Sequence record: NC_052656.1
Source: Escherichia phage anhysbys
Strand: one strand, 5' to 3'
Length of the DNA stretch: 64,000 nucleotides
The notes beneath the pieces were generated by a model, which saw only the letters and a program-made list of their open reading frames with translations, did not search any database and was not told the DNA's origin. A program made the translations under genes and the position numbers. This document shows positions 16,913-18,803 of the stretch, in pieces (position 1 is the stretch's first letter; the number at the start of each line of letters is the position of its first letter).

Positions 16913-17317
16913 TTATTGAAGTTTAAGTGAACCACGAAGACGTTTCTCTTGCTGATCACGAATATATTGTGGAACCTCGTGAATTGAATCATTACCGTGC
17001 CTATTTTCAACAACTAAAGAGATAACTTGATAACCAAACTCTTCAGCAAGAGTTAGATAAGGTTTAAGTTCTTTCTCTGTGGTTGAAGTGTTAGAAACAA
17101 TAATCTTGTTAAGATTAGATGCCATAGCATCACGAACAATACTCTGACACCATGCGTGTGCTTTACCTACATTTTCTGGCTTCCAATCGTAAACACCACT
17201 TTCTGTATAATGATATTGATCTGCCTCACAGATAGGCCAATAACCTTCAGAAATAATTTCTGCTACCGTAGATTTACCAGCACCTGAAACGCCACGTAAA
17301 ATGATAAGTTGTTTCAT
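16913..17317 (-). CDS. P-loop polynucleotide 5'-kinase (Pnk kinase-domain-like)
   Basis: Walker A GVSGAGKST near N-terminus; 134 aa, size of T4 Pnk kinase domain; adjacent to RNA ligase. Confidence 0.6.
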   Translation of the reverse strand: MKQLIILRGVSGAGKSTVAEIISEGYWPICEADQYHYTESGVYDWKPENVGKAHAWCQSIVRDAMASNLNKIIVSNTSTTEKELKPYLTLAEEFGYQVISLVVENRHGNDSIHEVPQYIRDQQEKRLRGSLKLQ

Positions 17318-18250
17318 TTATCCTCCAAAGAAGTTTTCGATTTTTTCACGTCGCTCTTGCTGATTTAAAGCAGCCCATTGAGTCTTCGTAAAATTATTTC
17401 GAATCCATTCTAACAAAGCGTAATATTCTTCGTCAACAATTTGTTTGGCATTTTTCGGATTATCCCAAATCAGATCCCACTTTTTATCTCCACCACGCAT
17501 AAGAAACTTCTTAGTAAGATAGTGTGGTGATTTAATTTTTAAAAGTAAGTTGAACGGATAGTTTGTTTCACGAACTACAAACCCTTCGTGTTTACAATGT
17601 TTAGACATTTCAACAACATCTGAAAACTTAACCATTGGATGAACTTCAGGACGCTTAAATTTGGTGACAGAAGCAATTCCATCAAGAGCACCTTCAGGTA
17701 ACATAAAACTTGTCCCATCAGGATTTTGAATTCTGGCACCAATTAAGTATGCACCTGGTTCTTCTTCGACAATATGTGGATCAGAAGGATCACAGATTTC
17801 AAACAGGAAAGTTGCTTTTGCACTCTCTGCCCATTTGATGAAATGTTCTATGTCATCGCACTCTGAAACAATATGATTCTTTGCAATACTTGCAAAATCT
17901 GATTCAAGGCTTCCTGTTGTCGATACAATAAGTTGACCTTTATATACACCTACAGAGGCCATAAAACCATTTACTTTACGAACCACATCTACAAGTTCAT
18001 CCGCTGGTAGATCTGTGCCATTCTCAAAACGATTAAAAATCTTAGTGAAAGGCCAAATAACAACATTGTCATCAGCATCAACAACGATTCCGCGACATTC
18101 TAGAAGACGAGAATCAATGCTCCATAAATTATCCCAGAAAACTTTGTTCTTATACTTAAGAACAGATAGACCAGAATACTCTCCTTCTTTATATGTTTTC
18201 TTATGAACTAAACCTTTTTCAACCAAATCGTCGCAATTAAATTTAGCCAC
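17318..18250 (-). CDS. RNA ligase, Rnl1 (T4 gp63) family
   Basis: LLECRGIVVD (cf. T4 Rnl1 ALECRGIMFE), motif I KVNGFMAS, motif IV EGFVVRE, motif V LLLKIKS. Confidence 0.7.
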   Translation of the reverse strand: MAKFNCDDLVEKGLVHKKTYKEGEYSGLSVLKYKNKVFWDNLWSIDSRLLECRGIVVDADDNVVIWPFTKIFNRFENGTDLPADELVDVVRKVNGFMASVGVYKGQLIVSTTGSLESDFASIAKNHIVSECDDIEHFIKWAESAKATFLFEICDPSDPHIVEEEPGAYLIGARIQNPDGTSFMLPEGALDGIASVTKFKRPEVHPMVKFSDVVEMSKHCKHEGFVVRETNYPFNLLLKIKSPHYLTKKFLMRGGDKKWDLIWDNPKNAKQIVDEEYYALLEWIRNNFTKTQWAALNQQERREKIENFFGG

Positions 18251-18251
18251 A

Positions 18252-18803
18252 TTATTCTCCTTTGATTATTTTGTGATGGTCTACAGTCACGATATCTCGT
18301 TTACTCATCATAGAAATTATCTCATCAAAATGCAAGATTTTTCCGTGTGCATCCCAACCCACATCTAACATTTTACCATAAGCTTCATCAGGGAAAGATC
18401 CGTGGGAATGCCCGTGTAGCATGATTGATCCACGACCTTGTTTATTCCAGGAGGCCATAGGGTAATGGCTTAAGACGAAGAACAGCTTCTGATATTTCAC
18501 TTCGTCATAATACACCACTTCTCCATACTCTGCAAGCACTTCTCGGTGTTTGCTGTAGTCATGGTTCCCAACACAGTAGGTGATATCTCCTTGGAGACGG
18601 GAAGCAATTTTACGGGTATCTTCTTCAGTTCCGAAACAGAAGTCGCCCAAATGCCACATCTTAACACCAGGAGTAGTAGCACATTTGTTCCATGCTTCGA
18701 TCAAGGCTTCTGTCATGTGGTCCATATCTTCCCACGGACGATATTCAGGAGCAAACTCTCGAATGCGTTTATGCATAAAATGCAAATCGCTTGTAATAAA
18801 CAT
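18252..18803 (-). CDS. calcineurin-like metallophosphoesterase (putative 2',3'-cyclic/3'-phosphatase of the RNA repair set)
   Basis: TSDLHFMH, GDFCFG, GNHDY, LHGHSHG metal-binding motifs. Confidence 0.7.
   Translation of the reverse strand: MFITSDLHFMHKRIREFAPEYRPWEDMDHMTEALIEAWNKCATTPGVKMWHLGDFCFGTEEDTRKIASRLQGDITYCVGNHDYSKHREVLAEYGEVVYYDEVKYQKLFFVLSHYPMASWNKQGRGSIMLHGHSHGSFPDEAYGKMLDVGWDAHGKILHFDEIISMMSKRDIVTVDHHKIIKGE

Follow-up and report, generated by a model that had tools for sequence, protein, structure and literature searches.

Do the three small genes that lie side by side on the minus strand of Escherichia phage anhysbys, at positions 16,913 to 18,803 of the 64,000-nucleotide stretch analysed here (NC_052656.1; hereafter the window), encode enzymes that work together on broken RNA? 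Our results make it likely that they do, the best explanation for the trio being a three-enzyme module for RNA 'healing and sealing', in which a metallophosphoesterase and a P-loop kinase would restore the ends of a cleaved RNA and an Rnl1-type ligase would join them. The original prediction, made from the sequence alone, had placed three adjacent minus-strand genes at exactly these positions, and the list of open reading frames (ORFs) bears it out, with products of 134, 310 and 183 amino acids. All the motifs on which it relied are present in the translations, i.e. GVSGAGKST in the kinase, LLECRGIVVD, KVNGFMAS, EGFVVRE and LLLKIKS in the ligase, and GDFCFG, GNHDY and LHGHSHG in the phosphoesterase. 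The three genes are as follows.

18252-18803, minus strand: metallophosphoesterase of 183 amino acids, aq_1665/COG4186 family, binuclear (from Pfam and invariant metal ligands); proposed 3'-end healing.
17318-18250, minus strand: Rnl1-family ATP-dependent RNA ligase of 310 amino acids, with a GTG start; proposed sealing (from Pfam, PHROG and fold).
16913-17317, minus strand: minimal P-loop kinase of 134 amino acids; proposed polynucleotide 5'-OH kinase (from Pfam, PHROG and PDB profile).

The strongest evidence for a module, and the evidence that is decisive, is linkage. A scan of viral contigs for the ligase family gave 49 distinct viral loci (ligase identity 37-88%); all 49 have the phosphoesterase gene near the ligase gene and 47 also the kinase gene, each time encoded on the same strand as the ligase. 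In 44 of these 47 loci the three genes fit within 4 kb, and in 17 they are contiguous. The order phosphoesterase-ligase-kinase is found in 39 loci and three other orders also occur; because gene order varies while the trio stays linked, selection on linkage, not inherited synteny, is implied. The ligase family is present in 725 phage records by tblastn, including those of Escherichia (197), Pseudomonas (177), Streptomyces (111) and Vibrio (83), as well as others.

Fusions of the kinase with the Rnl1 domain provide a second line of evidence and occur in both orders, kinase then Rnl1 (P0441) and Rnl1 then kinase (P0491). A homologue is also present in 55 Campylobacter species genomes (L055-L109, among species-representative bacterial genomes), in 54 of which it is a fusion in one ORF of ~497 amino acids (kinase ~6-140, ligase ~212-500), followed directly by a phosphoesterase gene in 53. 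The Campylobacter fusion protein is not recognised by Pfam at E <= 0.001. In the one locus inspected, that of C. gracilis (L100:5383-7557), the neighbours are an AIR-synthase-related protein, an asparaginase and a two-component system; since these are housekeeping genes, the context is cellular and not that of a prophage. Kinase-ligase fusions are classical evidence that the two activities act on the same substrate. Thus, the proposal that the three proteins act together, which the original prediction had made for this phage, is strongly supported by conserved linkage and by fusion.

The ligase is a member of the Rnl1 family by Pfam profile, PDB profile and predicted fold. It matches RNA_lig_T4_1 (PF09511) with an E-value of 4.4e-15 (56.6 bits; cutoff 28.3) over profile positions 1-227 of 227, belongs to phrog_562, the T4 gp63 family (3.5e-70; the other two proteins of the trio match their PHROGs at 2.6e-56 and 6.5e-56), and has 1,783 database homologues, mainly in phage contigs of 140-150 kb. 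Residues R53, K70, K92, N94, G95, E151, E222, G223, K238 and K240 are invariant in 32 homologues of at least 49% identity and align onto the RG, KEDG, FEF, EGYV and KIKS elements of T4 Rnl1; K92/N94/G95, E151, E222/G223 and K238/K240 constitute motifs I, III, IV and V, respectively, with K92 being the predicted AMP-accepting lysine. A PDB search with the single sequence is nearly blind for this protein (T4 Rnl1 at E 0.086), and a family profile was needed; with it, T4 Rnl1 is the sole match among all PDB sequences (1.5e-10). The AlphaFold (AF2) model has a predicted local distance difference test score (pLDDT) of 91.7 and a predicted template modelling score (pTM) of 0.85, and a Foldseek search of the PDB with it ranks T4 Rnl1 (3.4e-13) and the ligase domain of fungal Trl1 (Trl1-LIG, 4e-13 to 2e-11) on top, with archaeal Rnl3 (~1e-10), Rnl2 (4e-7) and DNA ligases (3e-5 or worse) in lower ranks. 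The PDB profile match, to T4 Rnl1 alone, and the fold ranking rule out a DNA ligase or a capping enzyme, either of which would have counted against the original prediction, and the assignment as an Rnl1-type enzyme holds.

Assignment of the kinase relies more on profile comparison. In Pfam only the generic AAA_33 profile is matched (4.1e-10), and the PHROG matches are to phrog_2071 ('ATPase') and, more weakly, to phrog_505 ('polynucleotide kinase', 1.7e-8). The protein has a P-loop of the form GxxGxGK[ST] and an Asp at the catalytic position after strand 2; R8, G9, G14, K15, D33 and H113 are invariant in the family alignment, and in the alignment D33 falls on the first Asp of 'RDD' in Pnkp1, i.e. 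the catalytic Asp. A search of the PDB with the single sequence gave only the P-loop, and a profile of 23 family members was therefore used; its matches, the E-values of which are modest, are to Capnocytophaga Pnkp1 (2.1e-7), T4 Pnk (2.4e-6) and, over the full length (query positions 3-132), the Clostridium thermocellum kinase CthPnk (1.3e-6), as well as to seryl-tRNA(Sec) kinase. Judged by this profile, the best full-length solved relatives of the kinase are RNA-repair polynucleotide kinases. At E <= 1e-10 the family comprises 1,808 cluster representatives, almost all of them stand-alone proteins of 130-150 amino acids.

The phosphoesterase has all five calcineurin-like signature motifs (DxH, GD, GNH[DE], H and GHxH), matches Pfam Metallophos (24.9 bits; cutoff 21.5) and gives a predicted structure with a pLDDT of 95; D6/H8, G53/D54, G79/N80/H81, H113 and G131/H132/H134 are invariant in two independent alignments. 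Its sole strong solved relative is Aquifex aq_1665 (1xm7; profile 1.3e-22), a protein of uncharacterised function, after which the structural relatives are MJ0936, YfcE and LpxH. An Mre11/SbcD-type nuclease, which the original prediction had named as the outcome that would count against it, is rejected, given that aq_1665 is the only strong solved relative. An assignment to PdeM is likewise rejected, with an NCBIfam resemblance (E 0.0034) far below the cutoff, and no specific similarity was found to RNA end-healing enzymes of the CthPnkp or lambda-phosphatase type. Nor is the protein a relative of the only metallophosphoesterase for which RNA end healing has been proven, and its proposed role, that of a putative 3'-end healer converting a 2',3'-cyclic phosphate or 3'-phosphate into a 3'-OH, rests on context. 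A literature search found no functional work on COG4186 or aq_1665. We also observed a protein of 202 amino acids on a 143-kb contig (P0143) in which sequence matching the phosphoesterase over its N-terminal two thirds (71% identity) is joined to sequence matching the kinase over its C-terminal half (78%); a natural deletion in a related phage appears to have removed the ligase and fused what remained of the flanking genes.

In the proposed mechanism, the phosphoesterase would first act on the end that a metal-independent RNase leaves behind, a 2',3'-cyclic phosphate or 3'-phosphate, and turn it into a 3'-OH, a step in which, in the lineage of the window, a cyclic-phosphate-processing protein encoded upstream (cREC, see below) may help. 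The 134-residue kinase would then phosphorylate the 5'-OH of the other fragment, after which the ligase, having adenylated itself on K92, would pass AMP to the new 5'-phosphate and seal the break. By analogy with T4 Pnkp/Rnl1 and PrrC, the likeliest substrates would be tRNAs, of host or phage, whose anticodon loop has been cleaved by defence nucleases of the host, and the module would complement the tRNA set of the phage itself. We infer this scheme of healing, phosphorylation and sealing from homology and linkage; the ligase and the coupling of kinase and ligase are well supported, the precise reaction of the phosphoesterase and the choice of tRNA as target less well.

The phage does carry its own tRNA set, as originally proposed, in the form of an array of 11 tRNAs starting at 23439 on the plus strand. 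The description of the cassette as being next to this array was overstated: 4.6 kb, ~17 small ORFs and a divergent intergenic region lie between the two, which are on different strands, so that the array is near the cassette but does not adjoin it. The eleventh tRNA (24136-24220, plus strand) was found by Rfam (39 bits; gathering threshold 29), not by ARAGORN; it has the anticodon GUA and the same sequence as the tRNA-Tyr annotated in phage ETEC-TG. The idea of two layers of protection, i.e. repair together with the phage's own tRNAs, is a reasonable one and has already been voiced in the literature. Of the 49 viral loci, 21, the window included, have tRNA genes at most 8 kb from the ligase, which is suggestive, although many of these loci are related and the count has no proper null. 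Separately, a tRNA-Sec-like match (37.4 bits against a gathering score of 47) is present at 23824-23910 on the plus strand, just upstream of tRNA-Ser, and may be a degenerate or unusual long-arm tRNA.

Several observations weigh against an RNA-repair module. Nothing in the sequence marks tRNA as the substrate, and a literature search found no activity measurements for any member of the three families. The ligase scores 24.7 bits, against a cutoff of 242.25, with the NCBIfam equivalog profile for T4 RnlA (TIGR02308), which matches residues 43-165 alone; it is therefore not a T4 RnlA orthologue but belongs to a separate subfamily within the Rnl1 superfamily. Its C-terminal helical part (~residues 242-310) is shorter than the RNA-binding domain of T4 Rnl1. 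In T4 Pnk, R38, three residues past the catalytic Asp (D+3), binds the acceptor nucleotide. This Arg is present in CthPnk as well but is missing from the kinase studied here, which has H36, and the position is variable in its family (H, F, Y or M); acceptor recognition therefore differs. Hence, membership of the kinase in the canonical Pnk clade is only partly supported. Finally, 0.7 kb downstream there is a gene for an ATP-dependent DNA ligase (15043-16170), and one is found within ~5.5 kb in most of the viral loci.

The last of these points would fit an alternative in which the kinase and phosphoesterase mainly heal DNA ends, i.e. nicks with 5'-OH and 3'-phosphate termini, for the nearby DNA ligase during phage DNA repair or replication. 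T4 Pnkp acts on DNA too, and the faint resemblance of the phosphoesterase to PdeM, which is associated with DNA ligases, points the same way; even so, we consider a primary role on DNA quite unlikely. It may alternatively be that the trio matures RNAs of the phage itself, such as transcripts of the tRNA array, by programmed cleavage and ligation, rather than mending damage inflicted by the host. The proximity of tRNA genes to the ligase in a substantial minority of loci is consistent with such a role, as is the fact that Trl1, which is of the Rnl1 family, is a splicing ligase. However, the remaining 28 of the 49 loci are without a tRNA within 8 kb, the C. gracilis locus is a cellular operon among housekeeping genes with no phage context, and the array of the window showed neither introns nor split tRNAs, so that we regard maturation as unlikely.

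Other explanations separate the phosphoesterase or the ligase from its neighbours. Given that MJ0936, YfcE and LpxH act on small phosphodiester or pyrophosphate substrates, that sirtuin, Macro, HD and NAD-salvage genes are among the neighbours in other phages, and that ADP-ribose 1'',2''-cyclic phosphate (ADPr>P) is among the substrates considered by Iyer et al., the phosphoesterase might act, together with cREC and the kinase, on small nucleotide signals or ADP-ribose derivatives produced by host immunity, the ligase being close only through a shared early counter-defence region. Yet the linkage of phosphoesterase and ligase is without exception over very different phage backbones and recurs in Campylobacter (53 of 55 loci), where the C. 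gracilis locus shows the fusion and phosphoesterase genes only; such linkage in both phages and Campylobacter is hard to explain without a shared substrate, and we judge action on signalling nucleotides very unlikely. The label 'RNA ligase and tail fiber protein attachment catalyst', which the PHROG and GenBank entries inherit from T4 gp63, would suggest that the ligase homologue is chiefly a tail-fibre attachment factor, the second role of gp63, and that its neighbours are unrelated to it. Invariance of all the catalytic ligase residues, the location of the gene among nucleotide-metabolism genes on the strand opposite to the structural genes and the homologues in the cellular Campylobacter operon make this highly improbable.

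Comparison of the RNA-repair module proposed here with characterised systems reveals both shared chemistry and a different distribution of it over polypeptides. The T4 Pnkp (PseT)/Rnl1 system, which counters PrrC, carries out the same three chemistries as are predicted for the trio, i.e. 3'-end healing, 5'-OH phosphorylation and ATP-dependent sealing; T4 Rnl1 has the same Pfam family and the same fold as the ligase, and the kinase domain of T4 Pnk is a distant relative of the kinase. Unlike in T4 Pnkp, however, healing is divided between two separate proteins, with a binuclear metallophosphoesterase instead of the HAD (DxDxT) phosphatase of T4, and the original prediction was correct in describing this split. 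Further differences from T4 are that motif I of the ligase is KxNG, as in Trl1, rather than the KxDG of T4 Rnl1, that the ligase is no equivalog of RnlA and has a shorter C-terminal domain, and that the kinase is without the Arg at D+3. The Pnkp/Hen1 system of C. thermocellum employs the same domain classes (P-loop kinase, calcineurin-like metallophosphoesterase and ATP-dependent RNA ligase), and the match of the kinase profile to CthPnk extends over the full length. In contrast with the single chain of C. thermocellum Pnkp, the trio consists of three separate polypeptides, and its ligase is of the Rnl1 rather than the Pnkp type; a scan of 14 neighbouring ORFs revealed no Hen1 methyltransferase. 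In fungal and plant Trl1, ligase, kinase and cyclic phosphodiesterase are present in one chain; Trl1-LIG matches the fold of the ligase as well as T4 Rnl1 does, and the kinase-ligase fusions within the family of the trio are reminiscent of the Trl1 chain. Unlike Trl1, the trio has no 2H cyclic phosphodiesterase domain, and the window is without Tpt1/KptA or a sirtuin.

A further precedent is the V5/Mydo version of the sirtuin-centred neighbourhood, for which RNA repair was predicted by Iyer et al. (2022; PMC9503650, section 3.7.3) and whose T4-like tRNA ligase, cREC, nucleotide kinase, MazG and calcineurin-like phosphoesterase are all found in the window too. The V5-like loci in our sample (L005-L013 and L016) are direct relatives. 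The window differs from the type-2 sirtuin-centred neighbourhood of the same authors in that no sirtuin is detectable in its 64 kb. Although Iyer et al. (2022) call the phosphoesterase 'occasional', it accompanies every ligase locus that we analysed, the occasional parts around this ligase family being the sirtuin (10 loci) and cREC (9-10 loci). In the same genus, GenBank records carry the labels 'putative polynucleotide kinase', 'putative RNA ligase' and 'putative phosphoesterase'. Both the RNA-repair concept and this type of neighbourhood are thus already in the literature and in GenBank labels, and the trio is an ordinary member; a literature search found no experimental studies of the ligase family in V5-like or PAK_P-type phages. 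There is about an even chance that the trio represents a distinct and very widespread RNA-repair pathway, occurring in over 700 sequenced phages of Escherichia, Pseudomonas, Vibrio, Streptomyces and others and as a two-gene cellular operon in Campylobacter, in which the aq_1665/COG4186 healer would be a new functional class and the 134-residue kinase would have its own mode of acceptor recognition.

Three neighbouring genes have a possible bearing on the module.

19319-19675, minus strand: cREC protein of 118 amino acids, cyclic-phosphate-processing receiver domain (Pfam cREC_REC, 1.5e-13).
18803-19159, minus strand: protein of 118 amino acids, phrog_839, with homologues carrying PF26092; its stop overlaps the phosphoesterase start.
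13925-14650, minus strand: MazG-like nucleotide pyrophosphohydrolase (Pfam PRA-PH, 2.7e-6; phrog_671).

The cREC gene, upstream of the trio, was overlooked in the original prediction. Proteins of this type have been predicted to open cyclic phosphates in RNA-repair contexts (Iyer et al., 2021, 2022; PMC9503650). In our sample, cREC is tied to the ligase in the 9-10 closest of the 49 loci only, being located between ligase and kinase in V5-like loci, and it is a probable lineage-specific accessory of the module. In several GenBank records (ESCO5, ukendt) the cREC gene is labelled 'putative RNA ligase and tail attachment protein', an annotation that looks like a carry-over from a neighbouring or fused gene. 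The protein at 18803-19159 has no match in the local Pfam or NCBIfam copies, PF26092 being absent from the Pfam copy, but all 120 listed homologues are tagged PF26092, for the function of which a literature search found nothing. Its family is linked to the ligase in just 3 of the 49 loci, and its membership in the module is uncertain; the family is found in many phages, including jumbo phages, and some GenBank records call the protein an 'anti-restriction nuclease'. In the 12 closest loci the MazG-like gene follows the ligase at a distance of 3-7 kb; it is a member of the neighbourhood in the lineage of the window, and any role in the module is putative.

Elsewhere among the 49 viral loci the accessory neighbours comprise HD-motif (23 loci), PRPP synthetase-like (18), NadV-like (17), sirtuin (10) and Macro-like (8) proteins, names that are given from a reading of the sequences without a Pfam check. 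In PAK_P1-like and related loci (L014-L046) the trio is flanked by NadV-like and PRPP synthetase-like proteins (NAD salvage), HD-motif proteins and Macro-like proteins. A sirtuin, HD, Macro or NAD-salvage partner was considered for the 64-kb window and rejected, and tblastn with a V5-like sirtuin (from L009) found no sirtuin there. Since the accessories differ by lineage, the core is the trio; cREC, sirtuin, Macro, HD and NadV proteins fit with a chemistry of RNA ends and NAD.

Over 3.7 kb the region shares 99.3% identity with Escherichia phage dw-ec, and ~55 phage records are 96-99% identical to it, the majority named Phapecoctavirus; the window is from a Phapecoctavirus, a phAPEC8-like E. 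coli myophage of the Stephanstirmvirinae with a genome of ~150 kb. From ~22.4 kb to its left end the genes are on the minus strand and have functions in nucleotide and DNA metabolism; from ~23.4 kb the plus strand carries the tRNA array and structural genes. Within the leftward string the trio is tightly packed: the stop of the upstream gene and the phosphoesterase ATG share bases (TAATG), one base separates the phosphoesterase stop from the ligase GTG (TAA-T-GTG), and the kinase ATG follows immediately on the ligase stop (TAA-ATG), each of the three starts being preceded by a Shine-Dalgarno-like purine run. The trio is thus on one packed gene string and is probably translationally coupled. 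A scan for consensus promoters and terminators yielded nothing beyond the level of shuffled sequence (37 promoter-like sites, with 35.9 expected), and we therefore do not define transcription units beyond the packing of the genes. The next gene downstream of the kinase (16577-16903, minus strand) encodes a coiled-coil protein of 108 amino acids, for which the labels 'hol-like chemotaxis' (PHROGs) and 'DNA polymerase I' (one GenBank record) look unreliable.

The trio does not open a new question, the concept being already known. If the proposed module is real, however, it would assign a function to the aq_1665/COG4186 metallophosphoesterases, an orphan family from structural genomics, and to a large family of very small kinases, and it flags a cellular counterpart in oral Campylobacter. 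For the phage, the cassette would be one more route by which to undo the cleavage of tRNAs by host defence nucleases, working beside a tRNA set that replaces those that have been cut.

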